A DNA stretch of 61,627 nucleotides, filler included, from Hausera hauseri (lineage: Eukaryota), in assembly GCA_046269625.1 (NCBI GenBank). It is 10 parts of 10 records of this genome, joined end to end, with 100 filler letters (N's around TTAATTAATTAA, not from the genome) between each part and the next. Parts side by side here need not be neighbours in the genome. Positions count along the whole stretch, not along the records: positions 34,530 to 44,752 come from JBJURY010219964.1; 9 more parts are not named here. One strand, written 5' to 3'. Below, in pieces: positions 10,650 to 59,621 of the stretch. Each line of letters starts with the position of its first letter. The stretch's first letter is position 1. The position numbers and the translations under genes were made by a program. The notes beneath the pieces were generated by a model. That model saw nothing but the letters and a program-made list of their open reading frames with translations, was not told the origin of the DNA and did not search any database.

Positions 10650-10724
<75 letters not shown>
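10650..10724. repeat. (TATC)n microsatellite at contig end
   Basis: About 18-19 perfect tetranucleotide units. Confidence 0.97.
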
Positions 10725-12425: not shown

Positions 12426-12649
12426 TTAAGGATAAAATCTTACTCAAACTTAAATAGGTACAAGACTATTAATTAAAATCGTGCACAGGATACGGCAAGC
12501 AGTACACGCATTATTAAAATCATCACATATTGGCACATTCATTTAACGAGAACGTTAAATCGAATCTGCGTAAGCTATTCAAATTTAAGAGTAAACTACT
12601 GTTATATAGTGGGAGATCGTTAAGGGCCACCCCAATATATAACAAAACT

Positions 12650-15600: not shown

Positions 15601-16040
15601 ATGATATATGCAAATGACATTGTCCGTATGGTATTTTTTATCATAAAATTTGCACCCTAGGTGGCATTTTTGTGTATTACTATCAAACCTACTGTGGTAA
15701 TAGAAAATCAGTGATCGTCCAGGTGAAGGTGAACGACCACGAGATACTGAACGGTTACGGTCATGTATGAAACCCTCACGTCGAGTCAATGAAATCTCGT
15801 TCAGTTTATTGTTGATGGTGTTGATTATGTGTTGTAGTGCCGCATTTTCGGCACGTAATTGATTCAGTTGGTGCTCAATAGAAGTATGTTGTTGATTGCC
15901 ATCGGTCCTAATAGCGGCAGATATGATGGGTTGTGGTTGGATTTGTAAGACTTCGTGTGCTTTATCTGCCAATTCAGCCAGTTTATTTAAGGCTGTAGAA
16001 TCTTCAACAACGGTAAGTAAAGCCCTAATTTGAATGAGTA
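12650..16040 (-). mobile_element. Degenerate Ty3/Gypsy element, family B copy 2
   Basis: Minus-strand gag (KLAELADK, YYHSRF..KC...C), FLIDTGA, internally deleted RT, YSTFDREL, TDHKPL, HSLHHPG, HIDIVGPLP, LGWRNTP. Confidence 0.9.
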
Positions 16041-16139
16041 GGTAGATGTGAGGGCACTGGGCCAATACCCCCACCCCCATATTATGAAAATTGATGCGTT
16101 TAAACAAAAGTGAATTTCACGAATTGATGAACCGGTACT

Positions 16140-21780: not shown

Positions 21781-22964
21781 TTGTCGGGGGAATGCTTCTT
21801 TTTGTTCAGTCCATGACTAGTTGCTTTTTGGACTACTTAAACAGGTTTAAGTTGTCCTTGTGCAAATTATAGAATTATTCATAGTTGATTTGATCATCAA
21901 CTATAGAACAACCGGGACAAACATAGGTCCGTTTATTGTGCAGCGTTGTTGTGCCATAGTACTGCTCCATTGCAGTATGACAATCATCCGCGTTATGCAC
22001 CCTACTAGTACAGTATTGCGGCTATGTGGGGCAATTCTCACGCATCATCTTCTTGGACCACGTAAACGGCCCGAGATGATGCTTGTGCATCGCATAAAAG
22101 TCAGCGTGTGGACATTGCGTTGAAGTACTGCATGTTGGACATAGATATGTCAGTCCCAATAATGTAATACTTCTCTACTAGCTGATGGCACTGCTCCTGA
22201 TCTATGTGTANNNNNNNNNNNNNNNNNNNNNNNNNNNNNNNNNNNNNNNNNNNNTTAATTAATTAANNNNNNNNNNNNNNNNNNNNNNNNNNNNNNNNNN
22301 NNNNNNNNNNATTTTTAACATTTATTTACTTAAATTTCTTTTCAGATTGCCAATGCCAGCATCAAGGTATGCTATTAATTTACAACGGGTGTACAAATAT
22401 TTATCACATGGTGTAAAATAAATAAGTACTCGATTGATTTCAGTAATGCAGACGGATGATTCTAGTTAACGATATAGATTTTTCGCTCATGTTCGTCGTT
22501 ACTACATCGATTATATAAGATAGCAAGAACAGATTGTAAAAATCCATGGATAAAGACAAGTAAGAAATTGTTGAAATCCGGTAAGAATCGTCGACTTCCA
22601 ATGATCTAACTTCAATTTTGCAATTTGTCTGACAATAACAAAAGAAAGACTCAATGCCAGACGAGGTATTTATGCTTTATAATGCCCATTGACTATACAT
22701 ACCTATTACAACTTTCTTCAAAAGTGTCACATAACAATCGGAAAGTTCAAAACCGGCATCAATTTATTGGAGTTACTACTAATTATATGCCATGAATGTA
22801 ATATCCTAATTATTATGAAGTCTATCTAATTCACCTAATGGAACAATTCCGCAATGCTAAAGTTATATACACTATAAGACATAAGCTAAATTTTCAATAC
22901 GGAAAATTTCCTATTTGACTTTTCAATTGAGTGTAGTATGACATGCAAAACAAAACGAGCTTAC

Positions 22965-23390
22965 CTCAAAATCTTTAATGTGACTGTCCACAATATTGGC
23001 CTTATTCAACACTAAAACAACACGACCAGTTGTATCCAAATACGTTTTCATAACTTCACGGGGTCCTTCACGAATCGGATATGGTGCCTTCACACTAACA
23101 TCACTAACACCCTCCGGCAGCACAACACGCACTGTCGCATGGTCGATCAACTGATCATCATAAATATGATCAATAAATCGAATTTTCAGTGCAAATCGAT
23201 TGTCTTTTGAATAGAGAAATTCATAACTGGGAACATTATATCCAAGAGTATATTGAGTTTTCCATATGCCAAATAAAAGAAATCTCGGGCGCAATTCAAC
23301 CTCGACCGAATCCGACAATTCTTTGAAATGACTCATGCTAATATTGTCAATTTCATTACGGTAGAACACAATACGAGTACTGGCGTGCAA
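22965..23390 (-). pseudogene. RPN1: Ribophorin I (OST subunit 1) exon fragment, diverged
   Basis: YRNEIDNISMSH..ELRPRFLLFGIWKT..GYN.P..LPEG..TYLDTTGR match RPN1 with substitutions at conserved sites; GT donor at 22964; truncated by a transposon at 23391. Confidence 0.85.
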
Positions 23391-23392
23391 TA

Positions 23393-24322
23393 CAGTTGTT
23401 TCAGACTTTTCACCGATGAAATTTCATCTTGCGTTCGTTGTTAATCGTATTGTGAAAATGGACCTTTCAATTTTGCACCACTGTGTTAAAGGTCAACTGT
23501 TTCTTCAATTACAATGTTTCCGCAGAGAAATTTCGGTCAGACGATTCAATGAAGTAACGTAAGTCAATAATATTTGATTTTCCCAAGCAGAACCGAACAT
23601 TGATTTTCTGGGAATGAGCATGGTGCTCATAAATTTCATCAGACTTGACTGTTGCCCACGATTTCGTGTTTTGACTATTCCCATGGCTGGACATATGGAA
23701 TATTTCTTCATCGTCGAAGTACAAATTATCGGGAAACAATGGGTTTGTCAAATTTGCGTTGCTGAAATATGTGCAGAGGAAAATTCTTGAAAAGTAATCT
23801 TTCTCCTTGAGCATCTGATGGGTCTGCAGCTTGTATGACTTCATTTCAAAAATTTTCTGTACCGTAGAATATGGAATGTTTAATTCCTGTAAAGCTTGTC
23901 GAACTGATTTACAAGGGCTTTTTTCGAATGCTTCTTTCATCATTTGTATTGTGCGCTCATCAGTTTGAGAATGTCCACTTCGATGTTTGTCATGGATCCT
24001 GTTTCTTTGAATTTTTCAATCATTCTTTAATTGGTTTTGAGTCGAAAGCATCTTTCTTATACTTTTTCCTGTATTTCTTCTGCGCACTGGCAATTTCATC
24101 CGATTTATTGTATTAGAGTACACAATCCACTTTCTCTTGAAAGGCTTATTTGTTCTGCTTAGACATTTTCAAAAAGGTTTAAGTAAAGGTGATAAGAAAA
24201 CGGTTAATTTCACTATTTTATACTCTATAAACAGTTGACAACTGATATATACGAATTACTTAAATTCTGTGCAAAACTCTATGGTAGAATATTGAATTTC
24301 CGTGCATAATTTGTGAAATCTG
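23393..24322 (-). mobile_element. Tc1/mariner-superfamily element with 3'-deleted transposase
   Basis: HRSGH, SPCKSVRQ..ELNIPYSTVQKI (HTH), FDDEEIFH..GNSQNTKSW, HSQKINV; flanked by TA|CAG...CTG|TA; TIR similarity weak. Confidence 0.75.
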
Positions 24323-27327: not shown

Positions 27328-28460
27328 ACATGGAAATTAGCGCATTGTGCAGATTGTCATCAAAATCCGCGATGTCCTAAAGATGCAGAAGATTATGAAA
27401 AAGTATAACTGATTACGATGAATACAATATTAATTGTTAAATGAACGAAATTTTACAGGCAGTCAGGTACAATTACAGTTGTGATGAACAATTTGCATTA
27501 ATTGAAGTTATTGGTATGGTGAAATCAGTACAGAGTCAGTTGATAAAATTAGATGCGAGTTATTCTGAAGGAATCCGTAATGCCATTTATGTAGAATTGC
27601 AGTCATTTGTGCAATGTACACTGAATGAACCATATAGAAAGGCACAGAAGAATAAGAAGACAATTATTTCATGGCTTATTGATAGTATTCGTGCAGCATG
27701 TCAGGATAAAATTGCGTCATCATCATCGTCATCGTGTATAGGAACTGGAACAGGAGATGGGAATAATGAAGGTGGATTAGCAAAGAGTACAAGTAGTAGT
27801 ACATTAGGATCAGCAGGGACAACATCACAACAAGGTACTGGAGGAGGAGGAGGAGGAAAGAAACAATCGATAATTAGTGGTAGTGAACAACAAGCAGCAA
27901 CAGAATCAATAAGACAACGAATGAAATGTCGAGATGTAGGTCCATCATCCACACAATTGTATTTAGTACGAACAACAGTAGAATCGATGGTAGCTGTTCG
28001 TGCCGGTGGTAAAAATTCATTACGAAAAGATCTCGATCCATCGAGTATTGCTGCATTGGAACAATTCCATCGACAATCATTCTATTGGCCATATCTACTT
28101 AATTTGAGTGAAACTGTCTTTCATTGTTGTGATATGAGTCAGTTCTGGTTTCGGGAATTCTTCCTCGAATTAACAAATGGTCAACGAGTACAATTTCCCA
28201 TTGAAATGTCAATTCCATGGATACTCACTGATCATATCTTGGAAACTCAGAATCCCGCATTTACCGAATTACTTCTTTATCCTCTCGATCTTTACAATGA
28301 CAGTGCTCGATCTGCTTTATTGACATTTCAGCGACGATATCTTTATGATGAAATTGAGGCTGAGGCTAATTTGGCATTTGATCAACTCGTTTTCAAATTA
28401 GCTGGACAAATATTCGTTCACTATAAACAATATGCAGCATCTATTTTACTGGACATATAA
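27328..28460 (+). pseudogene. CYFIP: CYFIP/Sra-1 internal fragment (exon 27328-27402, 56-bp intron 27403-27458, exon 27459-28460)
   Basis: WKLAH..CP..AEDYEK|AVRYNYS, VGPSSTQLY.VRT, CCDMSQFWFREFFLE, QFPIEMSIPWILTDHIL, LYPLDLYNDSA, LYDEIEAE.NL.FDQLVFKL; GT-AG intron; homology starts and ends abruptly. Confidence 0.88.
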
Positions 28461-31198: not shown

Positions 31199-34100
31199 TT
31201 GGTGCCCGCCTCACAGGGGCGGGAATCCCGACCGCCAACCCTGCGCCGGTCGGTCGGACGGCGCCTTCGGCGTTGGTCCGACATCACGCCCCCAGGCGCA
31301 CCACTGCTTTGACTTCCATTTTCTTTTTCAACAATACACATATCTATACTCTCAATACATCATACCCACACATTCCAAACCTTCGTACCTCTATTTCTCT
31401 TTTACTCAATTCTTCCGACTTTTATTTCATTCATAACGGCGCTATCATACCTCTCACCGGAACCTTACCTTCTCTCTCAAACCACACTTGCCTCCATATA
31501 CATCCCCGTATCCGTGGTGGCATGAACTCTCCGCCAATTATTGACACCACGGATGCAACCACCACAAAAAAGGCAATACCCATTCTCTACTACTCCAGAC
31601 CAAACCATCCACCTACTTCAGCCGATGCAAATTCTTCTCACAAAAATCCTTTCAGTACTTCTCCACATTGTCCTGAATACTTCATAGATAATGAAAAGTC
31701 CAGCAAAACTTGGCTCCATTTCCATCAACTCTTGTTAGAGTCCAACGGTATCACAGACTAGTTATCCAAAGCCTATAACCTACTTTATCTTCTACCAAAG
31801 TCTATAAAGGCCTCAATCCATAACTTAATGGACATCTTTCAACACTCTGACCTTATACCCAATTGTTCGATGCTGTATTAAAACAGACAGAACCATCAAT
31901 TGGTTGAATAATGCAACGCTTCTTTAATGAAAACGCAATGGGGACACAAAAATTTAGTGATTTCGTACGCACCTCGTTGGCTCACTTACGTACTCTTGGC
32001 GTAACCAAGGAATATAATCCAGACCTCCTACGCCATTATTTTCTCAACGTGTTACCTATTCAAATCCGGACCCTATTTACCGTGGTGGGGGACTCCGCGC
32101 CGCTTGAAAAGTTGCCCGAATTAGCCGATAGGACATACGAAGTCCTACACGTAAATTCTCCACCAGTCGTTTTTGCAGCAGTTGCCGCTAACGATAATGC
32201 ATCCATAGAACAACAACTTAACCAGCTACGTTCTGAAAACATAGCACTACATGCAACAATTAATAACATCAATAATAAATTAAACGAATTGTCTCTGTCC
32301 CGCCGAGAGGGTTTTGCCGCCAACCGCACCCGTTCTGCGTCTAGAAACCGCTCACCATCACCTGCGCGTTCGTCGATCTGCTATTACCACAGCAGATTTA
32401 ACACTAATGCTCAGAAGTGCTGCCTAAGATGCAAGTTTTACAACAAGAATTTTTCCTCGGACACCTTTGTTTGCATCGACCATGCTAGGTTCAAAAATCA
32501 AGCTGGTAAATGTATTCTAGGCTGCACTTTCAAATCTAACACGAATGATGGACGTACTGCCTTTCCTTCTAATATTCGTCCTAATTCACCATTTCAAAAA
32601 ACTAAGTTCCCCGCCAGAAGTCACGGCAAACTTTGGCAAAGGCACTACTTCACATTCTGAACACCGACACGTCTCTTCTGCTGTCTTTACTCTAAAGGCT
32701 GCAATCACTGCTTCTACAACGCAATCTGTTGACTTCCTCATTGATACAGGTGCAGCGATTTCTCTATTACCACAAACCTTGCCTGCACAAAATGCTCCAT
32801 TCAAACTTAATCCCTTATATACTGCTTCAGGCCAACCGCTGCACATTTCTGGTATGGCTATACTGTCTTTCACTTTACCAAACTTTCTTTCACCCTTCCA
32901 CTAGACGTTCACAGTCGCTAACGTCCAGACAGCAATTCTAGGATCAGACTTTCACTCATAGTATAATTTACTGGTTGACTGCAGTCAACAATGTTTTAGG
33001 AACGGTACCACTGGCGACATTTCTAGACATATAAATAGCGTTTCGACTACCGCGCAGTCGACCGGAATGCGGAAGCCAATATTAAAAAAGTCAATTCATA
33101 ATTCGATTTTTTCTAACAATAATTCCAAACGTAAAATTTTAAATAATAATATTGAACGAATCGTCTCTGTCCCGCCGAAGGAGTTTTGTCGCTGCCACTA
33201 ACGTTAACTTATTCTACAACATTACTTCATCCAACACCATTTTCAATTCAACCATCTTACACCAAATACCACTTGGCTGCACATCAACAAACAACTCACA
33301 TATTGCATCTGCTACTACTCAAGCCGTTTCATCACTTTCACCGAATCTCTCATAGTTACCTACAACTTTACAACAGTTCGTCAACACATCATGTCCACGC
33401 GTACTTAAAAAAGACCGTACCCTTACTTCCGCAAACAGCACTTTACACCACATAGTCACGCAGCACCAACGTCAAATACGACAAAAAGTACGGCCTCTGT
33501 CGCCTCGTAGTAGATAGGCCGTAGAAGCCGAATTTCTTGAGATAGAACGTTCCGGCATAGTACGCCGTTTTAAATCTCCTTGGTCATCACCTCTACACGT
33601 TGTACAAGAAAGGACGGTACTTTTAGACCATGCGGTGACTACCGACAGCTGAACAACTTGACTATTATGGATGCATACCCTTTACCATTCATCAAGGATA
33701 TCCTGTATCGACTTAATTCAACCACCATCTATTCGACCATTGATTTAGCTAAAGCATGCCATCAAATACCTGTAGCACCCGAAGACATAGAAAAAACTGC
33801 TGTAACTACTCCTTTTTGTCTCTACGAATACATGTTTATGCTATTCGGTTTGAGGAATGCCGCACAAACTTTTCAGCGGCACATCGATTCAATTCTTTCA
33901 GATTTCCCGTTTGCACACCCTTATATCGATGATATTCTTGTTGTTTCATCGTTGGCCAAACAACACGAAGAACACCTTCGTAAAATTTTTCAACGTCTTA
34001 ACTACTATAATCTCCAAGTCAATTTCGACAAATGCCAATTTTTCAAAAAGCGCATTAACTTTATAGGCCATGTTATTACACCAGACGGTCATTTTCCCCA

Positions 34101-34429
34101 ATCAGACCGAGTCGAAGCTCTTAGAAACATCCGGCTGCCATATACGACCACCGAAATGCGTACCTTCCTTGTCACACTACACTTTGTACATAAATATGTA
34201 CCATATTGCTTGGAATTAACAGCACCATTCGCACACCTATGCGGCAGCAAAAACATCAGCCAATCCAGTGGACACCTGAATTGGTTGACAAATTTGACAA
34301 ACTACGTGACGGAATCAAAACTGTAGATATCCTCGCTTTTCCGAAGCCTGATGCAGAGCTCATCCTCACCACTGACGCGTCAACCACTGCTGTAGGCGCT
34401 GTACTCCACCAAATTCACAAGGGAGAAAA
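31199..34429 (+). mobile_element. Ty3/Gypsy element, family B copy 3, from PBS-like site through gag to RT and the start of RNase H
   Basis: ..CTACA-TTT-TGGTGCCCG PBS-like junction; gag; FLIDTGA; RPCGDYRQLN, FGLRNAAQTFQR, YIDD, LTTDAS; cut by contig end. Confidence 0.9.
31309..31521 (+). CDS. Ubiquitin-like domain fused in frame N-terminal to Gag
   Basis: 71 codons: LTSIFFFNNTHIYTL..IPNLRTSI..DFYFIHNG...TCLHIHPRIRGG then ATG; compare ubiquitin STLHLVLRLRGG. Confidence 0.65.
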
Positions 34430-34800
34430 NNNNNNNNNNNNNNNNNNNNNNNNNNNNNNNNNNNNNNNNNNNNTTAATTAATTAANNNNNNNNNNNNNNN
34501 NNNNNNNNNNNNNNNNNNNNNNNNNNNNNAAATATATAAGATGATCGAAGAAACAAACTTTATGCGGAAACGGAATGCGACTTGTGATTTCTATCCAAGA
34601 CTGAGAGATATCCGCCTAAAAGGGATCCAACATTTGACAGCCAATCCCATTGAGGAAGTTACAATTCGAGATCTTAAAACCTTAGACTTTTGTCCCGAAT
34701 ATCGGTCAATTGTTGAAGAAGCGGTGCAGTTCTTACATCGTCCAAGAATGGAGGGATGGAAAGGACCAAAGGCATCATATCGAACTGATTAAAATGAAGA

Positions 34801-36160
34801 ATGACCACCACCTTAGCTTCGAAGAGATTAAATTTATAAAAATTATTAGATGCGATAGATCCAGATTTAAAAAGTATTAACGAGATGTATGAAGTAGCGC
34901 TAATGATGGCAGAAATGGCAGGGATCAGTGACAAGAAATTAAGACACTTGTAGCAACAGATACAGCAAGTCGAAGAAACTTGCATTAAGACCAAATAGAG
35001 AGCGATGAGATTAGACGAACTACCTAGAGAATTCGAAGTCTATAAAAACAAATACGCCCTGACAGAAGCAGAAAAGGCTGACAAGTCGAAATTCGTTCAA
35101 AGGTGGCAAAAAGATGTCACTTCCGAACTAACAAGCTATCAAGAACAAGGACTGATTTTGGCTGAAGAATTATGTTCGTTGTTAACACTGCTATACCAAA
35201 CTTCTACGAATGGGCGCTGTTTCCGAACGACGAAAATGGTCCAATTGCAACAGATCCTACAGGAACTCCGAAAAACCATAGAGATTGCAGGTGTAAGTGG
35301 ACCAACCGATATAACCACAAGGGGCTATCAACTGCCGGACGATGAAACCAAACCAGATTGGGAGACATATTTAGACGCAATGATTGCCGAAAACCCAAAA
35401 ACTCCCATACGATTAAGTGAAATGCAGATATATTCTTCGGACCAAAGATTTAACGTGGGAATGCTTCTGGACCCAGCACAAACCGAAAAAGATTTAATTC
35501 AGTTGACTGAAGTAAACCTCACTGAAATTCAATTAAGACAGTTGGTCCCTATTCTAACTAAATTAGCTAGCGAAGGTACGATTTTTAGTACAGTACCTAA
35601 GCTTTTACTCAAAGAATATGCTAAAATCCTAAAGACAAGGGCCGAGGAAACGATTATTGCAAAGATAGCATCTGACTGGATGAACGAGAAGGAACATGAG
35701 TTCACTACGCGCTCCCTTGTAAAGGATGTATTATTGTGGATAAGGAACAATGGACACGCCCATGAGCTGAGCTATAGACTTTATTTTAGAGGGAGGATAC
35801 TAGATGAATCGGAACTATTAATAAAAGTCGGAATTATTCCAGGTGAAGTAAATCAGGTAGTGGTAACCATTACTACCGACGAAACAAAGGAGGAGGCTAT
35901 AAGGAAGGATAAAGCAGAACAGTGAGTAGGTCGAATAATAGGAGTCCAAGATGAGGCAGTATATTTCGAGCACCTGCAGACGAACGAAGATAATGAGCAA
36001 TACAATAAAAATTTAGTACCCATCAACGGCAGTGTGCCTGCTGTAACAAAACAGAAGCATCCTGTCGGTAGACCACGAAAGACAGGAGAAGAAATCAACT
36101 ATAATGGAGACCTAATCAGAGTTGAGGCAAATGTCTATACCAACTTTCAGTGTGGACAAT
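34801..36160 (+). pseudogene. Accessory protein with ubiquitin-like domain (~35653-35868) and AT-hook (~36058-36081)
   Basis: One frame with a few stops, including ORF 35005-35925; SLVKDVLLWI..YRLYFRGRILDESELL..VGI.PG; HPVGRPRK. Confidence 0.55.
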
Positions 36161-36587
36161 AAAGAACTGAACGAACTTATGAAAAATTTGATACGAATAG
36201 TAAAACACTCTAATCTCGGCGGTGATATATTAGGTGAGAAAGAGAAGGCCATATCTAATGCTGCTAAGGCCATGAAGGGCCTTCGGTGTAAATTAGTTAG
36301 AAGTACCTTAAGCGATGAAGTAATGATTGAGAGAATTATGGGGGAAAATACCATAGAAGAATTAAGAAAAAGTTGCTATATCTGGCTATCAAAACTAACC
36401 CAAACCGAGAGAATAAATTTAACAAGGCCACTAGCTTGGCAAGGAGGGCTTCCAAAAAACTACCTCTGGAAGTGAACTGGTCAAAGTTATTCGAGAAAGA
36501 AGAAGAACATCAAAGTAGATTCCTTTAGGTAACAATAGATTCGAAGATCTGCTACGAAATGTAAACGGGAATCACAGAGGAAATGAA

Positions 36588-38516
36588 TTGAACTGGCTAA
36601 TCCGCTTGCTGACCATTATGATGTTAATAAGACAGTTGGGTGCAGTTACAATATATGATTGTGACAAATTTAGACTTGGCCAAAAATACTCATTAATGGA
36701 CTTAGAAATGTTCGAAGACGCGAGACCACACAAATTAGAAACAAAAGAGAAAAGTTACGTACTATATCAGAAACGCGAACTAATTACATTGGATAGAGTA
36801 AAATGTTTGTTGCGGCGATCTCGCAGCATTTTCTATTGTGGACTGGTACAAGGACACTCGTCAGTAATTAAGCCAACAGCCTCACTAATGCCGATGAATT
36901 TAGAACGTCAGCATTGTAAGCAAACTAGAGAGACGTGAAGAATAAAATGGGACGGCATGAAACTGGAAATGCAACAAGGAAAAATAATCAAAGTGTATAA
37001 AGTGGTGGCAGGAAGACTAGACATGCACACCGGACATTGTCATTGTGCGGAATACGATACCGGGAAAGAATTAGAGTCGAAAATCGTAGTAGTAAATTTT
37101 TATAAAACCGAAATGCGCATACAGGAGGTGATGTTCCATAGCGTTACTAAACTCTACACCGAGAACCACAAGTGCCACATTCAGGATGGCACATGCCCAT
37201 TCCGAAGTTCCGTAGTAATTTTGGAACCGCCGACTAAGGCCGATTGCAAGTTTATTAGAATTAAGGAGCTTAAATTCAATGAGGCGACGGGGAAACGGTA
37301 TTTAAGTAGTACAGAGACTAATTCTAAAACACGAAAAGATGTGGCTGAACAGTCCACACCTACGATACTAATCTTTGATACTCACGGACTAAAGTTTGTG
37401 AAGAAAGATGTACTCACAAGATGTGACGTCATAATGTACGCCACTAGATATGAAGCATTTTTCGTCGCGGAGACGGAAATAAGCGCCAGAACGTTCAAAC
37501 TTGAGACTCGGGACATCCGGATTGAAGATTACTTGAAAAACAGAGATGATTATTTCTACTATAAGGGACAAGCAGGAATAGCCGAGCTTTACCACAAAAT
37601 GATAACGAACGACTGCCAGTTGGATTTGGAATTCATGAGGACTAAGATGCCCCTAATATATGCCAATCCCGAGTTGGCATCACCAATAATTCATATGAAG
37701 GAAGGTGTTTTTGGACGGGTAACCGTAGAGATCTTATTAACATATGAGTGTGAGGAGAAAGATGTACCTATTAATGTGGAAGAGAAGAGGTGTATACAAG
37801 AGCTTCCCGTAATATTTCAGGACGTACCTAGATTAGTAACACAAATTACATGAGTATTGTTGGCAAATTCTACGCAACCGACAGTCTTGAGAGATTGCAA
37901 GACCAGCCTGGGCGAAACGATGTTTAGACGTAGCGAAATCGACTGGGTAAGTTTACCGAACGGCGGTATTATTGCACCGCCTACCAAGTTGACAGGGACA
38001 AATTTAATAAAAGGAATAACCGATGATAAATTTCAAGATACCGCCGCAAAGAGTATTCACCGACCAAAAGAAGTAGAGGCGTTCAGACAATTTCTCGCCT
38101 TTCCTCGTTAGCGTAAGCACGAACTGAATAGAGCAGTGGATACAATATTAGAGGATTCGTGCTACCAAGCGAAATGGGAGTCATTATTCGGTGATGGATA
38201 TTATAAAAAGGTAACTACGGAAATATTACATAAAATCTGGGGAAGATTCCTGATATTCGGACAAGCCGCGTCAGGATTTTTAGCGATATATTTCTTAATT
38301 CAACTGGTAAAAGCTATAATTCAAGCAATCATAAATGGATACGAAATATTCACCTTGACAGGATTCTGGTGCAAAATTTTGACGGCTATTATCACGCCCT
38401 TTGGCAAATTCTTAAGGGCTTGCAAAGAAAGTAGATGGAAAACTAAAATGGAACGGCACATAGGCTATCAAATCGAAATCGTAAAAGAAGGTACCTATTC
38501 AAGCGAGATTTTATAA
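36588..38516 (+). pseudogene. env: Chuvirus-like envelope glycoprotein
   Basis: One frame across ORFs 36588/36957/37857/38136 with three internal stops; hydrophobic leader then IYDC, KC..RSIFYCG..HSS, LY....DCQL, NPE....KEG.FG...E....C, CIQELPV, PP, F.AFP, C-terminal hydrophobic IWGRF..FGQAASG..IY....K.II..IINGY. Confidence 0.78.
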
Positions 38517-38655
38517 ATACTATGAAGAAATAACTCAGACGATGACGAGCCTAAGGAAGGAGACGCTATACCCAAGTCGAACATACATAGAAACCATTCT
38601 ATTGTGAAATTACCACTACCAATACTGCCGTTGACGGTACCTGTATACGAAGACT

Positions 38656-41600
38656 GTGAAAAGCAATCTGAGTTCGTATCAGACAGAAATTTATCGGAAA
38701 CCGTTCAGTCCAGAGGATCCTTACGAAGGAACGAAACACTACAGAGTGTTTTGTAAGGTGGGAAAACCGTCTATATCATGCCGTCGCCCAGCGGTCGACG
38801 ATCGCGGTATAATCTATTCACCTAGAATGCCTAGAACAAACGAAACGCAGTCAAAATTTGCCAGAAACCGTGAGGTACACAATCTCCAGAACCAGGATAT
38901 TCAGAAGCCAGTTAGAAACCAAGGAATAGAAAACACGAATGGTGCAAATAATGAACTATACCCTATTGGAGAACTAAGACTGTTAATCGGCCAGCCCGTG
39001 GGAACTACGGAGGTTACTATTAACGGTTACAAAGTGTCAGCAATCCGACACCCTCGGGTAAAACCAAACTATTACGGTACGATAATGGAAGGAAGGCAAT
39101 TCGCAAAAATTCAATTGGAAGACTGGGAGGTATATGCGCTGATAGACACAGGATCCGAAATATAACTGATTAAATATGATTCAATACCACAATTTTTACG
39201 GAAACAATTGTATCCGCTTCCCATAATGGATCCAGGAAGCGTTGAAGCCTTCGGACAATCATCGAAAAGTAAATTCCGTTGGAAACCGGAAATTCACATA
39301 ATGGGACAATCTTTTCATCATGAATTCTCAGTAATGGAGCAACTAACGGATGATGTAGTGCTAGGATGTGATTTACTATGACAACTACCCAATATAGCAA
39401 TTGATTTCAATGCAGGCAAGTTGATAGAACTTGGCCCAATAAAAGAAGTTAGAACCACCAAAGATAGGAAGTTCGGAGAAGTGTGGATTCCAATAGATGA
39501 AAGCATACCACCCAGAACTGAAGTACTCATATATGCCCAAATACGTCAAGATGACGACCATGCAGTATATTTCGAACCAAAGGAATCGCTTAATCCAAAC
39601 CTTGTACTTAGCAATGTTTTGACAAGAGTATCAACAAGCCGCGTACCAATCAGAGTAGCGAGTAATGCGCCAACTTCAACCAAACTGTACGCTAATACCA
39701 CTTTGAGACACATCTATAGAGTATCGTTAATTACCATCGAAGAGAAACCGTTTAAGGGTGCCGAATTTCCACACTACGTCGAGACTAAATTTTCACCGCA
39801 ATTATATTGTAGATTTTACGAATTACTTTGCCGCTATAGCTCGATTATCTCGAGAGATGAAGAGGATATTGGCCGAGCCAGAACCTTAAGACGCACGATT
39901 CCAATTAAAAAGAAGCCTGGTTCCAACGACAAAATAGTTTTAGAAGATCAAAAAATACCCAAATGGTACCCTTTTCCGTACTCGTTAAGGCCAGAAATAA
40001 CTAAGGAAATTGAACGAATGTTAAAGGTCGACATAATAAGACCAAGCTATAGGTCTTGGTATTCGCCTATACTCATGGTTAAGAAAAAAGGTACCAATAA
40101 GCACCGATTTTGTATCGACTACCGAGTGTTAAACACACTTATGATGAAAGACTCCTTTCCATTACCATCGGTAAAGGAAACCTTGGATATGCTTTCGGGA
40201 GCTAAATGGTTCACCACGCTCGATCTACAATCCAGATATTGGCAAGTAGAGATAGTGGAGGAAGATCGGTATAAAACGGCATTTAAGACACATGATGGTA
40301 TATATGAATTTAAAGTTATGCCATTTGGGATAACTACCGGACCCGCCATTTTTACTCGCATGATGAACAAAATGATAATGGGATTGGAACATGCATTTGC
40401 CTTTTTGGACGACGTCATGATTGCGTCGAAAACAGAAGAGGATCATTTAAAGGATATTGAGGGTACATTTAAGAGACTGGAGCAAGCTGGACTAAAACTG
40501 AATCCCAAGAAGTGCAAATAGGCTTAGAATGCTGTGTCCTACCTTGAACATATAGTTGGAGAAGGAGGATCGAAGCAGAATAAATCACTATTAAGTAAGA
40601 TATTGGACTGCATGGAACCTCAGAATCAGAAGGAATTAAGACACTGATTAGGGTTATATGGGTATTGTGCTACCTACATACCAGATAACGCGAAAATAAA
40701 CGCACTTTTATATCGTTTGCTAAAAAGGGATCAAGTGGAAATTGGCCGATGTCGAACAGAAAGCTTTCGATGAAATGAAAAAGATTCTAACTAGTGAACC
40801 TTTATGAAGATATCCCGACTTCAACCTACCGTTTATAATAAAAACGGATGCCAGTAAGGAAGGTATCGGATATGAACTGGCCCAACAACAAGAATACGAG
40901 GAGCTGGAACACTAGATTGCATATTGATGGCGTTCCCTAAAGATAGTAGAGAAGAACTATTCCGTTACGGAGTTAGAAACGCTGGCAATGAAGGAAGCAC
41001 TACGACACTTTAACGTGTATGTTTATGGGCAAAGGATTGTAATAGTTTCCGATCATAAAGCAGATACGACCTTAAATGGTAGGGCAAATAATCCAACCTG
41101 TAGACTTAACAGATGAATCGAGGAGATCTCACGGTATAATATTGAATTCCAATACAAACCCGGAAATAAACATGTCGATGCCGATGCACTCTCTAAGCTT
41201 AAAACAAAAGCTAGCGCGGTTAAGGTAATTAAGAAAGCCCACCTCGAAGAATTAGTAGAGAGACAACGGACCCTTACTTTAGATAAGGCATTGAAGATTT
41301 CAGTCGAACAAAGAAAGGACAGAATTATACAACAAATTATGGAGTTCGTTGATTCCAACGAAACACCAAAAGGTCAGCAGTTACGGAAACACCTACGAAG
41401 ATATGGTCACAAATACCACTTCACAAGAGACTTGAACCATGAAAGTGTGTTGTACTACGAACGGAAAGGACGAAAATTGGTAGTCATACCAAAGGGATTG
41501 CCAACAGAGGTACAAATGGCCGAGCACGATTTGTATTTAGCCGGACATATGTCGTGGAAAAAGACCTTGGAAAGAATATTAAATAAATATTATTGGCCGA

Positions 41601-42625
41601 GCGTTTACATTGATGTGAGGAATTGGGTGAATGCTTGTGAAGTATGCGCAACTAAACAAAGAAAAGTGAGAAACTACATCGCCGAACTTACACCCATCAG
41701 CGTGCCGGATAGACCGATGCAAGCAACGTCCATGGATATCGTAGGACTATTACCTACGACCCACAAAAAAACAAATATATTTTGACTTGTGTAAATGGAT
41801 TAACTCATTTCGTTGAACTTATAGCATTAATAGACCAAAAGGCCAAGACTCTGGCAGAAGTAGTAGTCCAGAAGATTATTTGCAGATACGGACCGCCCGA
41901 TCAAATTTTGACAGACCGAGGGAGAAATTTTACGAGCGAATTATTTGACAGAATTACCAAAATTTTCGAAATTGAACGACTAACTACGACAGCTTATCAT
42001 CCCCAATTCAATGGAATGGTTGAACGGATGAACGCGACAGTTACACGAACCTTGTCGACAGTAGTTGCAAAGGACCAGAAAGACTGGGACGAGTTCTTGG
42101 AAGGTACACAATTCGTCATTAACACTACCCCGCATCCTGTGACAGGATTCACTCCATTTTTTATTATGTACGGCAGAGAAACTGTACTGCCTACAGATTT
42201 AGGATTGATTCCCTACACAAAAAACGGAAGATTTGGAGAAAAATTTTGTCGAGGAATTACAATTGAAATTACACAAGTGTTGGGAACTAGCCAAGGAATT
42301 ATCTAAAAAATACCAGGAACAATTTAAGAAGCAATACGACAAGAAGGCTAAACCACACGACCTAGAACCAGGAAACTGGGTTTACATACACTATCCAGTG
42401 GCCAAAAAAGGCACATCTCTTAAACTTACCAGAACCGGTAGAGGGCCTTATGAAGTTACCACAACTACACCGACCACAGTTTATATAAATAAAAATGGCA
42501 AGGAAAAGGTTATATCGATTCAGAGAATAGTTAAAACCGAGATAAGACCAAGTAAACGCCACAATCTACGTTCTGGCAAAGCGAAATCGGAGCATACGAA
42601 CAAGGAAAGAAAACATCGTCCATAA
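38656..42625 (+). pseudogene. pol: Pol (protease, RT, RNase H, integrase with GPY motif), disrupted
   Basis: ALIDTGS; FCIDYRVLN, TLDLQSRYWQ, MPFG, FLDD; TDASKEG, YSVTELE, DADALS; H..GH..C..C, MDIVG, TDRGRNF, YHPQFNGMVER, RGPYEV. Confidence 0.93.
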
Positions 42626-42639
42626 CGGTTAGGCCGATA

Positions 42640-44015
42640 ACGTATGTGCAAATAGTCCTCGCCTTATCGTTAATTGCTTCGTATGTACTGAAGGTGAAAT
42701 CGATAACTCAAATCTAAAAATTACAATATGCGGCAAGACGAAAGGATATCCAAAATTTGCAATCACTTAGAGTGTACGATATGGACTAGAGCAAATCGTG
42801 TGCGTGGTTCGAAGCGAGTGAACCTATTCAAAACCATGTGAAATTTCAAATAATATTTGTAACTAGAACCACAATGAGAACATGCGATTTTCCGTATGGA
42901 ATTCATAAGAAGTTTTGCGATTTGGATTTCGGACAAACCTACCTATACAGGTTTCAAATGTTTTACTATAATCCACCTAAAGCCCAAGCCTATATAATTA
43001 CCGATCTATTAATAAGAATGCCTCAACAAAATGGCACAAGCCAAGCCAAAACAGAGGAGATAATCCAAAGTACTGACCCATTTAAACGGCTCTTAGATTA
43101 TAACATTATTGGGATTTCCAAAGACCTAAAGGATCAATGTATTCGAATAAGACCAAAATAGAACTGCCAAGAGACAGGAAAATTTTTGTCCGATTTGTAC
43201 CACTGAATTCCTCGACTCCTATTCCTGAGTACTTCTATCTGGCCCGACGACGACCTACTGTGTGCTATAAACTGCAACTAGGACAGAAGTATCAGTTACA
43301 ACTCGATTTGTACAATACGTATCCCGGAGAACAAAGCACTTATTTAAGGTGATACCGTCCAAAAATCGGAATATGAAAGCTTCCGTTCCCAACCACTACG
43401 AGAAAACCGTCTACTGTTTCAAGTACAACTCCCACTACTATGATCGTCATTTTAGATAAAATGCCCAAAAAGGAACAATGAATCATTCCGGTTAAGATTT
43501 TAGCAAAACGTAATAGAATTCTATTTTACGCTGAAGAAACGTTAACCCAAGATGTCAAAATTGGATGTCGCACCCTGCATACAAATCAAATTATAATACT
43601 GAGAAAGAATAGTCAGGAAACTGAATGCAAATCATTACGACCGCAGCATAATTATATAGTCCGAATTACCGCAAAGGGTGGGAAAACTAGGACTTTTACA
43701 GTACGAACTCCCGACAACAAAACTAATGTAATGCAGTATAAAGATCTTAGTACTCAAAATGCGTTTACCATAAACGGTTCTATTGAGCCAAACAAATTAC
43801 CGATAATAGCTATATTTAATTTGTCAGTTTTTGTTCTTGTCACGTTAACGGCAATAATTTTTCTAGTTTCCAAAAATTGTAATAAACGCGATAGAAATCG
43901 GACCCCAAAAGGGTTGAAATGGGGTTTAGAGGAGAATAGACGGGTTCGGTTATACGCAATGCGGAATCCCAAGGATGCTCGAGCATACCTCCTAAGAGAT
44001 ATGATCCCGTACTAG
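42640..44015 (+). pseudogene. Type I membrane protein with signal peptide, three FN3-like repeats, S/T linker and TM helix
   Basis: YVQIVLALSLIASYVL leader; repeats CDLDFGQTYLYRF, CYKLQLGQKYQLQL, CKSLRPQHNYIVRITA; PTTTRKPSTVSSTTPTT; TM LPIIAIFNLSVFVLVTLTAIIFLV then SKNCNKR; stops and one frameshift. Confidence 0.55.
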
Positions 44016-44324
44016 CCCACCCATCAGCAATTGTACGTACATGTCGCTGATGGGGAAATTTAATACAGGATCGTAGGACAATCCTCGAGTACACAAAAAG
44101 GACAACAATGGAAATTTAGTACCTATGAACTATGTTGCTATAACCTCATGAATTACGCTCTAGAGTTCAGAATTACAGAACTTCCGACCAAAATCATAAT
44201 TGAGATGACTTGGCGAACAGAAGTAATGAAGCCATTACCACCGTTACTATATATACAAAAACCATCGGAAGACGAGATATAGCAAAATGGAGAATCTTAA
44301 AGATTAATTCCAGACGGTAGGAAC

Positions 44325-44752
44325 ACCCGGATATTAGCCGTAAACAATGGAGAGAAGGATGACGGATAGTATATTCCGATCGAGGTTTCTATCAGAAATA
44401 CAAATGCAGAACTTATAAACAAAATAATTGCGCCTTGAGCTAGGGTAAAAGATACCTTCCCCGACGTTACAGGGATTACGAAAGTATAGTTCGAAAAGGG
44501 AAAATATTTCTTAGAGATCCAGGAAGATATAAGCCATTGCTTATATGGATACGTTGTTACCGGATTTTGATTGCACGAAGCGTTAGAACGGCTAGGAATT
44601 AGACAAGAATATATATCCGGAATTCGGGAACTAAGTCGAAGCCCAGCTGTCGTGAGCCAGGTAGAAAACGCATTGATGAGGAAAAGAGGATGCCTACTTC
44701 CGTCAGCATCACGCGAATCACGATTTAAAATGATGCTAGAAGCCATTAATTG
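44325..44752 (+). pseudogene. DEDDh (REX4/ISG20-like) 3'-5' exonuclease-fold domain, degenerate
   Basis: RILAVNN..IPIEVSI.N..LINKIIAP..RVKD..VTGIT..EIQEDI..LYGYVVTG..L..LGI..IREL; same frame as 43137-44015. Confidence 0.55.
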
Positions 44753-44852: not shown

Positions 44853-44937
44853 ACAGTGGTACAGTGGTACAGTGGTACAGTGGTACAGTGGTACAGTGGT
44901 ACAGTGGTACAGTGGTACAGTGGTACAGTGGTACAGT
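44853..44937. repeat. (ACAGTGGT)n tandem repeat
   Basis: About 10 perfect 8-bp units at contig start. Confidence 0.95.
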
Positions 44938-46109: not shown

Positions 46110-47544
46110 CTACATATCATCTCCATAGTACAACGATTCCATATCCAAACCAACTTCTTCGTAGTCTTTTTCAAGACATTCCAAATTTTCTCTTGCTTCA
46201 GTAAATTCTCCTTCTTCCATTCCTTCGCCAATATACCAATGAACGAAAGCCCGTTTAGAATACATCAGGTCGAATTTGTGGTCTAATCTAGCCCATGCTT
46301 CAGCAATCGCGGTCGTATTGCTTAACATACAGACGGCCTTGTTAACTTTAGCCATTTCGCTACCTACAACGACGGATGGCGGCTGACAATTAACACCAAC
46401 TTTGAAACCAGTCGGACACCAATCAACAAATTGTATGGCCTTTCTTGCTTTAATAGAACTAATTGCTGCATTTACGTCTTTCGGAAAAACATCGCCACGA
46501 TAGAGAAGGCAACATGCCATGTATTTTCCATGTCTTGGATCACATTTTACCATTTGATTAAATGGTTCAAAACAGGAATTTGTGATTTCTTGCACAGTGA
46601 ATTGTTCGTGATGGGCCTTTGCAGAGGATATAACAGGAGCATATGAAGCTAATGGAAAATGGACTCTCGGATATGGTACCAAATTTGTCTGGAATTCTGT
46701 AAGGTCCACGTTTAAAGCCCCACTGAATCTCAACGATGCAGTTATTGAGCTTACAATTTGACTAATAAGTCTATTCAAATTTTTATAAGTCGGTCTCTCC
46801 ACACAAAGATTACGCTGACAAATATCATAAATGGCTTCGTTGTCAACCATAAACACACAATCACTGAATTCTAATGTCGAGTGCGTCGTTAAAATGGAAT
46901 TGTACGGCTCAACAACAGCCGTCGAAACTCTTGGTGCAGGATACACTGCAAATTCAAGTCTTAACTTTTTCCCGTATTCAACACTCAGTTTCTCCATCAA
47001 TAACGACGTAAATCCCGATCCAGTTCCTCCTCCGAATGAGTGGAATAAAAGAAACCCTTGCAAGCCTGAACAGATGTCGGCAACTTTTCGTAGTCTGTTG
47101 ATAACTTTATCAATTATTTCTTTACCGATTGTATAATGGCCTCTCGCGTAATTATTAGCTGCATCCTCCTTACCAGTGATCAGTTGCTCTGGATGATACA
47201 ATTGCCGATATGGTCCTGTTCGAACTTCATCTGAATAATTTCAATACCAAAGTCAATCAATATGATTAACATATTACCGATAACATTCGGTTCTAAGTCA
47301 ATGAACAGAGCTCTTGGAACAAATTTTCCAAATCCCGTTTCACTAAAAAACGTATTGAAACAGTCTTCATTTCCTAGAGTTGGTCTCGTATCAGCCATCT
47401 GCCCATCGGGACTAATACCATGTTCGATACAATACAACTCCCAACAAGCATTTCCCATTTGGACTCCAGCTTGTCCAATATGAATATTTATTACTTCACG
47501 CTACGATAAATTATATACAAAAATGAACTAAACTACCTTACCAT
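46110..47544 (-). CDS. TUBA: Alpha-tubulin, intact; exons 47544-47542, 47500-47278, 47230-46110 (448 aa)
   Basis: [47 protein letters not shown]; GT-AG introns of 41 and 47 bp after codon 1 and within codon 76; spliced length 1347 nt, open. Confidence 0.96.
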
Positions 47545-51469: not shown

Positions 51470-52082
51470 ATGCTTGGTTGTATCACTGTCTTACGCTTCC
51501 AATGGAGACCAATACCAGTGGAAGTACTAATAGCAGATGAAAATAAACTTATTACCTTCCATGCTTACATCAACCCACGAAAAAGAATAGCCAATACGAA
51601 CGAACACTATCACGGATTAACTATGGCAATAATTCAAGAAGACGAAGAATTAGTACGGTACCAAGTAATAAGATATCTTTATGGTTACACAATAATTAGT
51701 GCTAACACAAGCACTATCCCAAAAGCTCTAAAGATACCAATAGACATCTTACATGGAGTATTTAATATTCTTTCTACGCCCAATATTAGAAATCGGTTTA
51801 TCGAAGGTTTAAAAATAAACCTGATCCAATTACCGAAAATGTACAGATTGTCTTATGAGATCCCAAAATCAGCCAAACATCATCCAAGCCATTGTGGATA
51901 TATATATTTCCAATGAAACCTGGGAATGGGACTGGATTCCCCCACCAAATAATTTAATCAATAATGGCTCATTTAGGGAGATTGAAGTCAAATACCATAT
52001 CAATCATAAACTTCAAAAAATCAAAGATAATATACCAACGCCATCGTTCATAATGAAGTTAAAGGATCAAACGGACAAATAA
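51470..52082 (+). pseudogene. DEDDh exonuclease-fold protein, homolog of 44325-44752
   Basis: PIPVEVLIAD..FHAYINP..I.....YHGLT....LYGYTII..LKI; frameshifted C-terminal helix IIQAIVDIY. Confidence 0.55.
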
Positions 52083-54093: not shown

Positions 54094-54300
54094 AGGGGCC
54101 AATTTTTGTCTCGAGTGGGGTCAATTTTTATCCCGAAGGGGGTCAATTTTTATGTCCAGGAGGTCAATTTCTATCTCGAGGGCGTCAATTTTCATCCCGA
54201 GGGGGTCAATTTTTATGTCGAGGGGATCTATTTTTATCTCGAGGGGTCAATTTTTATCTCGAGGAGTTCAATTTTTGTATTGAGGGTGGTCAATTTGGGG
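54094..54300. repeat. ~21-bp minisatellite (GAGGGGGTCAATTTTTATCTC-like)
   Basis: About 10 degenerate tandem units. Confidence 0.9.
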
Positions 54301-54821: not shown

Positions 54822-55812
54822 TTAACTCCAATCAAATTTGATACTTATGCTAGAAAGAATGTTCAAATACCGAAACCAATCCATTTCTACGACGATATCA
54901 ATATAGACTGGAGTCAATAAGTAAATTAATGCAAGAGATCTCCTAGCTCTATCCAACTCATGGAATACAGTAAGAGCGTCTTCTGGACTAAGACTAGCAC
55001 TTAAGACTGCTCGTCCGAGAGCTGTAGATTGTATCAATCGATTGTTATCATGCAATGTTGATAACATTTCAGAACTTAATACATTATTTTCTGATTTTTC
55101 TTCTATGCAAATCAAGTCACTTTTGACGCAGTCGAGTACCAAATCAGACTTAGAAAAATCAATCATATTGTCACTTATCGTTAAAAATGCCAAAAAATGT
55201 ACTCTGTAAATATGAAACACATTCCCCGACCCTAGTGACAATAGTTTCAAGCAAAGCACGCTTGAGAGCCAATGAATTATTCTGGTCCAAAGCATTTTTA
55301 AGCGGTTTTAATCCGCCTTCAACATCTTTCGTCTTACAAACTAATATGTTTTCCACTTTTAATAATTGAGTATCTAGCCATTGGGCAATGACGTTAAGAT
55401 TGGGAAGTGTAGCACCCATGCCCACCATTTGAATTTTCTTTGCTAAATATTCATCACTATAAAACTTTGAAACAAAGGATATTTTTGTGAACAATAATTT
55501 TAACAAGTACCCTCTGTGACTATCGCCCATTATATGCAGTTCGTCTATTACGACCAAACCCAAATCTCCAAACTTTTTATTATCAATAAGTTTATTAATC
55601 AATCAATTTACCTTTTCTATTGTACAAACGGCAATATCAACAGCATCGAAACCGCCTTTTGGATTTCCATCTCCCATAAAACAACCAATTTTCAGTCCAG
55701 CTCCACCAAAAACTTTTTAAAAATAAATCATCTTTTCTCGTGATACCGACATGTATGGGAGAATGAGCGAAGCCTTTTGTTTAGTTTCCAAAACGCGCTT
55801 AATTAAAATCAA
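54822..55812 (-). pseudogene. POLQ: DNA polymerase theta (POLQ/mus308) helicase-region fragment with internal deletions
   Basis: ILPY.SVSREK, DIAVCTIEK, VVIDELH.MGDSHRGYLL.LL.TK, GM.ATLPNL..A.WL, KRALLE.I, T.LGRAVLSASLSP..AL.VF.EL.RAR, IYLLTP; second RecA domain missing; stops. Confidence 0.8.
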
Positions 55813-57452: not shown

Positions 57453-59359
57453 CGTCGAGCTTCATATATACCAACATATAATCCAAAAGACAGCTACAAC
57501 TGTATTTTGACCAAACCAGTTGTGCTTCCTCATAATCTATATCACTAACTGCATCCCATTTCGGTGGTAACTCGTTAATAGACCGCAAGTCACTAAAAGA
57601 TTTGGCTGCAGTATATGAAAAATACCTATTCCCTAAATAATATCAGAAGGAAGAGTCGTTTCTGTCAATGGGTAGCTATCTAATTTGGAGGCTAATGTTT
57701 TGAGTGAAGCGGATAAAAACTGCAACGAGTCGAGATACCGAATAGATACAGACTTTTTGCTGAGCAGCGTATCATTGCTTGCATTGTTAGGAACTTTTCA
57801 GTTGTTTGCGGAATAACACTTAATTCCCAACTTCCGAATTTATTTAATGCGTGTTTTAACATATGATGAACATAATATCCACGCAAAGTATGAAAAATTA
57901 CAGGCAAATTATACCTCATCTTAAGAGCCAAGTTACATTTGTTACAAACTGGACCTAAGCATTTACCCGTAAAATGGCAGCGATCACGATCAAATTTAGT
58001 GCCCTTTTCGTGGCGTAAGTAACATGCTGTAGCATTTTTAAACTGAAACCATTCAGCTGGTGTTAACGGGATCATTGGCTTTTTGGCACTTTCATACCAT
58101 GGGAAAACAAGTTTCTTAACAATTTGCTCTAAAGAGGCGAAAAACGCAACTATGGAATTTTCACACACAAATTGTCTATATTCAACACCTGTTGATAGAA
58201 CTAACAAGAGAACGGCTGCAGCAGGCAAATGAATATGCTTCACTTTATCGTCAGAACACAGAACAAATTCAAAGTCCGCATATACGACAAAAGGCGAATT
58301 TATCGATTTTTTCCAGTTCTTAAACTCACAAAACTTATTTTCTGGCATTATGTACATGCCATGAGCTTGGAAGAAGAATTGTACATTGACAAATGCTTAG
58401 GGTAAGGGGTGTCAAGCCTAAAACTATGTAAACATTTCTCACACACATTTACATTGAATAATAATTTTCTTACTGTCAATATTGAATAAACGCTTAAGGT
58501 TGGGAACAGCAACATAGTGAAAGTGATTATCATTCTCAAAAATTACCAAGTTAACTACGGCTCCATTGGGATTTTTGCTGCTGTACAAAATATCGATTAA
58601 TGATTTTTTTACTATGTCCTCGTCAGAATCCACATCATCTTCCTCATAAAACAAAAAGGCATAAATTGCCAACTGTGGATTCTGCCTCTCATATTTACTT
58701 ATGTTGCATAATTTCATCGGCATGTCATCCAAATAATATTTCAGCTCGCTTAAATAAGGAATGTAATTATTAACTCTATTCCTATGATGATGATAATCAA
58801 AGACAGAATACTTGGTCACTGCCAGAATAAAGTAATAGAAACACAGTTTCCTCGTTTTGTACGTTAATAACGGCCATAGCATTTTTAAAGCTTCAGATGT
58901 TGGAATATAGGACATACCAGACAAGTAGTATAGTGGGCTAGTTTTGACTATATGAAAACACTATTTCAATATTTTAACTACCTTCCACCCTCTACCCATT
59001 TCAGAAAAATTCTCATTTGTCTCCTTTAAACTATCAGCTACAGTTTGTGGAAATGACTGCTCATAAGGAACAGCTCTGTGTACAATATAAGCCTCCTTTG
59101 CATTACACTCAACATTTTCAAACAGAATCTCAAGACCGTATTGAACCTTATAAAACGGCAATTGAGAAGTGCACAAATGTAAAGTAGATAGTATATCATT
59201 AGACGGTCGACGAGAAGTCAGATTGTCAGGTGCAACATCAAAACAAAGCTGGAAATAGTTATTACTAACAACAGATTGTACATCGAGTCTTATTTTCTGT
59301 ATAGGCTTTTTAAACTGTTCGTCAAATTTACGTTTCTTATTTATACTGTGATCCGGCAT
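57453..59359 (-). pseudogene. Polinton/adintovirus-type PolB, N-terminal and exonuclease half
   Basis: GRGWKV, SYIPT, HFHYV, CEKCLHSF, PFVVYADFE, RDRCHFTGK..CNKCNL, FHTLRGY, YMKLD; cut by contig end. Confidence 0.85.
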
Positions 59360-59621
59360 TTTTGTCCCTTTGACTGGTTGTTGTTTATAGATGTAGTTGG
59401 TTGTATTTGCTGATCTGCAACAAATTGTTTGGCCATTTCAATCACTGTGAGGATATAATCGAGAACGGAATATCTAAATTTATATTAAAAACATTTTTGA
59501 ATTTTAAAAATTAGATTTAAAAGTGTAATATTAAAAGCATAATTTAAATTTAGAATTTTTGTTTCCAAGTAAGTATTTTGGATTACAATAAAAATTTTCT
59601 ACAACTCGTGTTTACTTTTCA

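Follow-up and report, generated by a model that had tools for sequence, protein, structure and literature searches.

In the planarian element Burro, the part of the published account drawn on here gives the order Gag, Ubi2/SUMO-like domain, BCL-2, env, protease (PR), dUTPase-like domain, reverse transcriptase (RT), RNase H (RH), and integrase (IN), with an env that matches mononegavirus glycoproteins and is described there as the first env to lie in frame with gag on one side and pol on the other (Arkhipova and Yushenova, 2019; PMC6431247). According to excerpts of two further papers, Burro1 expression is under PIWI control (PMC8532177) and Burro1 is credited with an anti-apoptotic role (PMC13465017, citing Lee et al., 2026). 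Partial text of another report describes GAG-ENV-POL elements from Platyhelminthes (nine elements), Bryozoa, and Nematoda; by POL, these elements do not form one clade (Chary and Hayashi, 2026; PMC13524379). Rotifer long terminal repeat (LTR) elements with a DEDDy exonuclease as a third open reading frame (ORF3) are described in a portion of PMC5408684. Here, we analyzed a contig (positions 34530-44752, 10.2 kb) that very probably represents the interior of a long-decayed, inactive Ty3/gypsy element of the Burro-like GAG-ENV-POL type, whose family is present in high copy number in its animal host. Less familiar in this element are a second surface protein, which follows the integrase, and, behind it, an exonuclease gene.

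Module order of the contig and of its relatives

The analyzed feature corresponds to the whole contig, one of ten N-spaced contigs forming the window (the complete stretch of 61,627 nucleotides, filler included). As the original prediction had stated, it is gap-free between N spacers and carries every module on the plus strand. The contig both starts and ends within coding sequence, all of its modules are interrupted by stops or frame changes, and this copy is dead. Modules with stops were read through as X for the Pfam domain scan. The following features were identified:

34530-35469 (+), 5' part of the polyprotein, helical and stop-bearing; no Pfam family at the curated cut-off and no capsid-profile match
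35470-35889 (+), helical plus ubiquitin/SUMO-like (Ubl) module; profile of 13 relatives, E 1e-15
36067-36081 (+), GRPRK AT-hook-like basic motif, from the sequence and labeled by eye
36116-36516 (+), frame-broken segment at the Bcl-2-like position of relatives; no Bcl-2-like profile, Atlas, or capsid match
36519-38516 (+), Monjiviricetes/chuvirus-type glycoprotein G (HSV gB-like, class III); PF24664 (Monjiviricetes_fusion), E 9.5e-45
38517-39102 (+), G tail and spacer up to the protease, frame-broken and without Gag; relative P0002 aligns collinearly on both sides and another copy spans 38361-38730
39103-39387 (+), aspartic protease with DTGS motif; PF00077, E 3.2e-4
39352-39723 (+), PR-RT linker domain common to relatives, at the position of the Burro dUTPase-like domain; profile of 10 relatives, E 4e-17
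40078-40545 (+), RT with FLDD at the YxDD site; PF00078, E 6e-34
40817-41137 (+), RH; PF17917, E 2e-24
41489-42560 (+), IN with H2C2, DDE core, and GPY/F module and two frame changes; PF17921 and PF00665
42634-44015 (+), post-IN membrane protein with signal/transmembrane (TM) segment, FN3-like ectodomain, Thr-rich stretch, TM segment, and tail; hydrophobicity, repeat comparison, and relatives
44316-44752 (+), relic of an ISG20/REX4-like DEDDh exonuclease, truncated by the contig end; aligns to the second ORF (ORF2) of relative contig L001, E 1e-4

The glycoprotein, originally estimated at about 640 codons, was confirmed as a single frame of 665 codons with three internal stops, an internal signal/TM segment (36597-36653), and a TM segment (38253-38309). 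For this family of G proteins, class III is the designation used in the available part of PMC13524379; a PDB sequence search with G returned nothing. A word-based search for long G homologs also found none, a result superseded by a HMMER search of 1.84 billion proteins with G, which gave 447 matches, 18 of them at E<=1e-30. A domain scan took 14 of these 18 best matches, omitting four short fragments. Among the 14, a protease follows G in the same protein in 10 and no Pfam domain follows G in the remaining four, while RT or IN precedes G in none. When further relatives are included, 18 proteins carry G-PR-RT within a single ORF.

Intact relatives have the layout capsid-CCHC-(Ubl)-(Bcl-2-like)-G-PR-RT-RH-IN in one polyprotein. 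The original prediction had considered that other copies might have an ordinary gag directly before pol; in the relatives, G stands before PR, and gag lies upstream of G. P0002 is collinear with the contig throughout G and pol, apart from a gap of 14 residues, and L001 runs from Ubl through the last TM segment in one 3,426-codon frame followed by a separate ORF of 496 codons; both show the module order of the contig. Maximum identity to the relatives compared is 30% for G and 46% for RT-RH. Searches for the locus were positive in 0 of 63 candidate stretches of viral contigs, 0 of 48 of prokaryote genomes, and, among the matches listed, 2 of 592 metagenome stretches. P0002 (HBK71150.1), a full G-PR-RT-RH-IN polyprotein, is filed as a hypothetical protein of a Flavobacteriaceae metagenome-assembled genome; its presence in a bacterial bin probably reflects eukaryotic DNA. 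As intact relatives have a single ORF, the pieces on the contig are best read, from sequence comparison, as remains of one polyprotein and not as separate genes. The proposal of a relic of one complex enveloped element is borne out: in this Ty3/gypsy element, G precedes pol, and there are also accessory domains and another membrane protein.

The absence of a capsid or CCHC Gag from glycoprotein to protease also stood up to analysis and is expected from the upstream Gag of relatives. A capsid profile built from 15 relatives found no capsid between G and PR, and its only match in the window is an unrelated Gag at 119-583. Of 25 relatives, 16 encode capsid and CCHC ahead of G and none encodes them behind it, and the order capsid-CCHC-Ubl-G holds in all 10 relatives that have both capsid and Ubl. 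Because capsid and CCHC precede Ubl and G in relatives, and the Ubl module of the window begins only about 310 codons from the contig start, the Gag capsid and CCHC of this element most likely lie upstream of the contig's 5' end, rather than between G and PR, as judged from sequence. Two candidates for Gag remnants were rejected: a capsid to which an IPTFS motif had pointed at 36116-36475 (the capsid profile is silent there, while the control Gag was found), and a degenerate zinc knuckle near 38750 seen by eye (no Pfam match, and CCHC after G in 0 of 25 relatives).

The front part had been described as a Ubl/AT-hook protein. The Ubl module is supported by its profile, whose second-best match anywhere in the window reaches only E 0.45, and the GRPRK motif is present, with a [PR]GRP[KR] motif upstream of G in 5 of 16 scanned relatives; the idea of a separate gene gave way to that of a polyprotein relic. 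Pfam made no ubiquitin call on the Ubl module of the window. At the Ubl position it detects ubiquitin in P0160 (E 4.4e-5) and P0159 (E 0.018), both under the curated cut-off, and all Rad60-SLD/ubiquitin matches in relatives are sub-threshold. The Bcl-2-like domain of relatives has weak Pfam matches in two of them, and several relatives are without it.

Within pol, every domain of the predicted PR-RT-RH-IN series matches Pfam and the order is that of Ty3/gypsy elements (Metaviridae), but the region is not intact, as it carries stops and three frame changes. The catalytic motifs are still legible (DTGS, FLDD, TDAS, HHCC, and DDE). The PR-RT linker has no Pfam match, including to Pfam dUTPase, and its dUTPase label rests on the available part of PMC6431247. 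In several relatives (P0152, P0004, P0007, and P0155-P0164), there are multiple aspartic protease domains, some 3' of the integrase, as well as C2H2 fingers and ankyrin repeats.

Family copies and phylogenetic placement

A search for other genomic copies, as had been proposed, revealed a high-copy family in public run X1. This run contains 0.45 of the sampled words of the stretch, and 15,543 of its contigs align to it, covering 30 of 30 bins; 7,060 of them are 90-95% alike, and transitions prevail among the differences. Several frame changes of the present copy coincide with small indels among other copies. One X1 contig joins the end of G to the spacer (38361-38730) and another copy has a deletion joint that fuses 37403 in G to 39318 in PR, so that the G-spacer and G-PR connections are seen in separate copies. 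The contig represents a single old member of this abundant family. Among the matches listed, no RNA was found that contains the stretch. In 45 contigs, loose ends at 38524 might signal another upstream module; alternatively, they may be diverged versions of the G tail, with which they agree in 20 of 30 letters by eye and in 13 of 18 in a comparison that has an equal match elsewhere.

These copies bear on two other explanations of the contig. First, nested or adjacent insertions could have brought together, by chance, a viral G gene that had become endogenous, a Gypsy element lacking gag, and a piece of a host FN3 gene. The modules do occupy different frames, and depth varies along the contig, as this explanation would predict. 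Yet relatives carry the same order as one ORF, no repeat boundaries were found between the modules of the contig, and other copies connect G both to the spacer and to PR; these results largely refute the explanation, which we consider very improbable. Second, the contig could be an assembly chimera of several diverged copies from one repeat family, in line with the high copy number, the X1 word fraction given above, and the fact that no X1 contig among the matches listed spans the whole stretch. A mosaic within a single family would not, however, generate the module order, which independent contigs show, and a misjoin of this type, also raised in the original prediction, is extremely improbable.

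In a quick tree of G (42 rows, LG+G4; the grouped rows were chosen from top matches, and gene context was available for a minority of the comparison rows), 22 rows grouped as env-before-pol fall on one side of a branch with SH-aLRT 100. The G of the window lies inside a starred 14-row clade of env-before-pol polyproteins (SH-aLRT 99), and P0167, an Aedes protein of BEL/Pao type, falls outside the env-before-pol clade. By eye, subgroups in the G tree of the relatives correspond to those in their RT tree, as would be the case if the two genes are passed on jointly. The RT phylogeny that had been suggested as a check gave a mixed outcome. The seven best BLAST matches of the window RT-RH, among 132 other rows, are all G-bearing polyproteins, but a careful RT-RH tree (35 of 79 rows kept) leaves the window on a long branch (2.2) that is not placed within the G-polyprotein group.

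This long branch is one of several results that weigh against a single Burro-like element. A clade uniting the RT-RH of the window with 15 G-polyproteins is not rejected (p-AU 0.48), nor is it shown, and a word-based search with the PR-RT of the window found PF24664 in 0 of 120 proteins among the matches listed. No LTR, primer binding site, polypurine tract, or Gag was found on the contig. The Bcl-2-like profile of relatives scored the corresponding segment of the window no better than nine control regions, also with X read-through, and no Atlas match was found; a Bcl-2-like domain in the window was thus rejected. Single-sequence AlphaFold models of the L001 ectodomain and of the Bcl-2-like segment (pLDDT 32 and 42) were too poor for a fold search. 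In X1, depth goes down to about 500 across 42714-43395, a drop that would reflect fast divergence, and the joint between IN and the second membrane protein is bridged by 0 of the 8 pieces listed from about 15,600. Finally, X1 may itself be the source of the window DNA, and it shows a high-copy family without being independent support.

The position of the RT-RH also bears on a further alternative, in which the lineage is recombinant: the Ubl-G front and the FN3-like back would be Burro-like, and pol would have been swapped in from another Ty3/gypsy lineage. This agrees with an RT-RH that is not placed inside the G-polyprotein group and with the finding, in the part of PMC13524379 drawn on here, that GAG-ENV-POL elements are not united by their POL. 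On the other side stand the best RT-RH matches, the result of the monophyly test, and the PR-RT linker, which fits the profile of relatives at E 4e-17 vs. E 0.02 for another Gypsy element in the window; in addition, decay lengthens branches. Overall, we regard recombination as improbable and retain the reading of the contig as a piece of one Burro-like element.

Other contigs of the window hold eukaryotic genes (CYFIP, alpha-tubulin, and ribophorin I) and Gypsy relics, and the source is therefore an animal-like genome. Positions 2-6573 (+) contain another Gypsy element; it has a capsid and two CCHC knuckles, its pol ORFs are long, and a charged ORF of 477 codons lies behind IN. One ordinary gag-pol Gypsy family is represented by three relics on separate contigs, at 7024-10356 (+), 12585-16116 (-), and 31908-34429 (+). 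Relics of a protein-primed DNA polymerase B are present at 19362-20108 (-) (DNA_pol_B_2, E 1.4e-7) and 57692-59437 (-) (by eye), which we take to be Polinton-like. The host genes comprise CYFIP with a low-complexity insert (27441-28460, +), ribophorin I (22923-23423, -), a divergent alpha-tubulin (46110-47500, -), and a piece of a DEAD/HTH_61 helicase (54822-55602, -), and all four are usable for placing the host. Tandem arrays occur at 54095-54296 (21 bp units), 44853-44937 (8 bp), and 10650-10724 (4 bp).

The second membrane protein and the exonuclease

Downstream of IN lies a gene that matches none of the env families in Pfam. It had been described as a second membrane protein with FN3-like repeats, of which the membrane topology and one repeat hold. 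Two hydrophobic segments (signal/TM at 42634-42690 and TM at 43803-43859) flank a firm FN3-like repeat at 43494-43694 (E 5e-10; 0 of 200 shuffles as good), while two more candidate repeats are weak, being matched by 2 of 200 and 8 of 200 shuffles. The FN3 label is based on motif likeness and on the Atlas neighbors of the L001 ectodomain, which are FN3 clusters (0.91, low recognition) and provide a weak lead. Two hydrophobic segments after IN, in the reading frame of IN, are found in 12 of the 14 relatives that have an integrase (16 scanned, two without pol excluded); the exceptions are P0166, with one such segment, and P0156, with none.

The ectodomain itself differs among relatives. In P0166 it is an Ig domain (residues 2673-2742; Ig_3, E 1.5e-5), and at the C-termini of P0165 and L002 it is Cys-rich or unrelated, and therefore this ectodomain appears to have been exchanged between lineages. 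The large ORF of L001 carries, besides the post-IN cassette, an extra signal/TM-FN3-like-TM cassette between protease copies (codons ~1575-1760), which shows that the module can be duplicated inside the polyprotein.

The exonuclease-like domain named in the original prediction was recovered through its alignment to the ISG20-like ORF2 of L001, with 0 of 500 shuffles as good; the first acidic motif is lost in this copy. The stretch itself has no Pfam match, a PDB sequence search gave chance-level matches only, and a profile of three exonuclease sequences reaches only E 0.075 on it. ORF2 of L001 matches RNase_T (E 1.4e-5) and the ISG20 structure 1wlj (E 1e-6), and a downstream DEDDh exonuclease ORF was seen in this one relative's contig and in the present copy. 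A second ISG20-like relic lies on another contig of the window (51515-51793, +; match to L001 ORF2, E 4.5e-5); it does not match the contig's own exonuclease relic, and tblastx of it against the contig, L001, and L002 gave none. Exonuclease-like segments were also noted by eye before G, in the N-terminal half of P0015 and at residues ~110-290 of P0013, and these have no Pfam match at E 0.001.

In relatives, the full order in one ORF is capsid-CCHC-Ubl-(Bcl-2-like)-signal/TM-G-TM-PR(s)-linker-RT-RH-IN-signal/TM-FN3-like ectodomain-TM. Judging from this topology, such a polyprotein would thread the endoplasmic reticulum membrane four times, leaving Gag and the accessory domains in the cytosol, G and the second ectodomain in the lumen, and PR-RT-RH-IN in the cytosol, tethered via the tail of G until released by the element's protease. 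Signal peptidase and PR would then cleave the polyprotein into equimolar parts. In this arrangement, G is likely to drive membrane fusion for a particle or vesicle that has budded, the FN3-like protein may or may not bind cells or matrix, with even chances, and the exonuclease could possibly trim element or defense RNAs. The attachment, decoy, and counter-defense functions put forward in the original prediction are candidate roles. The second surface protein would have an analogy in the viral attachment proteins of paramyxoviruses and herpesviruses. By analogy, and more doubtfully, Burro-like elements might be two-glycoprotein retroelements, with a class III fusogen, a type I surface protein whose lineage-exchanged ectodomain (FN3-like, Ig, or Cys-rich) would serve attachment or cell mimicry, and an ISG20-like ORF for counter-defense; the window would then represent a deep unnamed family, possibly from a non-triclad host.

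If the second protein is displayed with G, attachment and fusion would be split between two proteins cut from one polyprotein. To our knowledge, no split of this kind is recorded for LTR retroelements, and our literature search found none. The conserved post-IN protein offers a handle on whether Burro-like elements form infectious particles in flatworm stem-cell systems.

Comparison with described elements

BEL/Pao elements, reportedly described by Dezordi in 2020, carry a chuvirus-like glycoprotein; they share the glycoprotein family with the present element and belong to a different retroelement superfamily. In canonical gag-pol-env errantiviruses env is a separate ORF 3' of pol, whereas the G of the window lies 5' of PR. 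With bdelloid LTR retrotransposons, as described in part of PMC5408684, the element shares a DEDD-family exonuclease ORF 3' of pol, and some of their ORF3s likewise encode TM proteins. The bdelloid enzymes are RNase D-like DEDDy proteins in a gag-pol-ORF3 arrangement, whereas the ORF of L001 is an ISG20/REX4-like DEDDh exonuclease behind an env-containing polyprotein.

The GAG-ENV-POL errantiviruses, as far as the text of PMC13524379 drawn on here describes them, agree with the window in gene order and in an HSV/gB-type env directly before pol, and their Schmidtea ENV domain I-II rows share motifs by eye with our top matches and with the G of the window; they differ from the window copy, which is decayed. 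The main text of that report makes no mention of fibronectin, exonuclease, Burro, ubiquitin, or in-frame.

The closest likeness is to planarian Burro/GYPSM1, for which the comparison was made with Burro-like relatives and with the published description, as no named Burro protein was among the matches. Shared features, in the part of the description available, are a single polyprotein with an env in frame between gag and pol (both here via relatives), high copy number, a mononegavirus-type env, a Ubi2/SUMO-like domain before env, and an extra domain between PR and RT. No LTR pair was found in the contig, L001, or L002. Burro elements are giants of more than 30 kb with long LTRs in triclad hosts, and the contig measures 10.2 kb. 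The window copy is much more compact from Ubl to IN, and no ankyrin, BIR, or MATH domain is present on the contig, although the latter two might be encoded farther upstream, beyond the contig start. The Bcl-2-like domain before env is not detectable in the window, where the segment is frame-broken; several relatives are without the domain too. Neither the post-IN membrane protein nor the exonuclease ORF is listed in the PMC6431247 account available to us; they were not found described for Burro-like elements in the literature searched, and figures, Repbase entries, and some Burro papers outside that search may show them.

The original prediction had proposed a candidate undescribed lineage; this is not supported, and the gene order is already published, in the portions of the two sources used here, for planarian Burro (PMC6431247) and for GAG-ENV-POL errantiviruses (PMC13524379). 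Because Bcl-2, ankyrin, size, and RT clade do not establish membership, we do not place the element in Burro proper, though it would work like one. With env before pol already published, the main gain is one more, divergent family for the Burro-like group.

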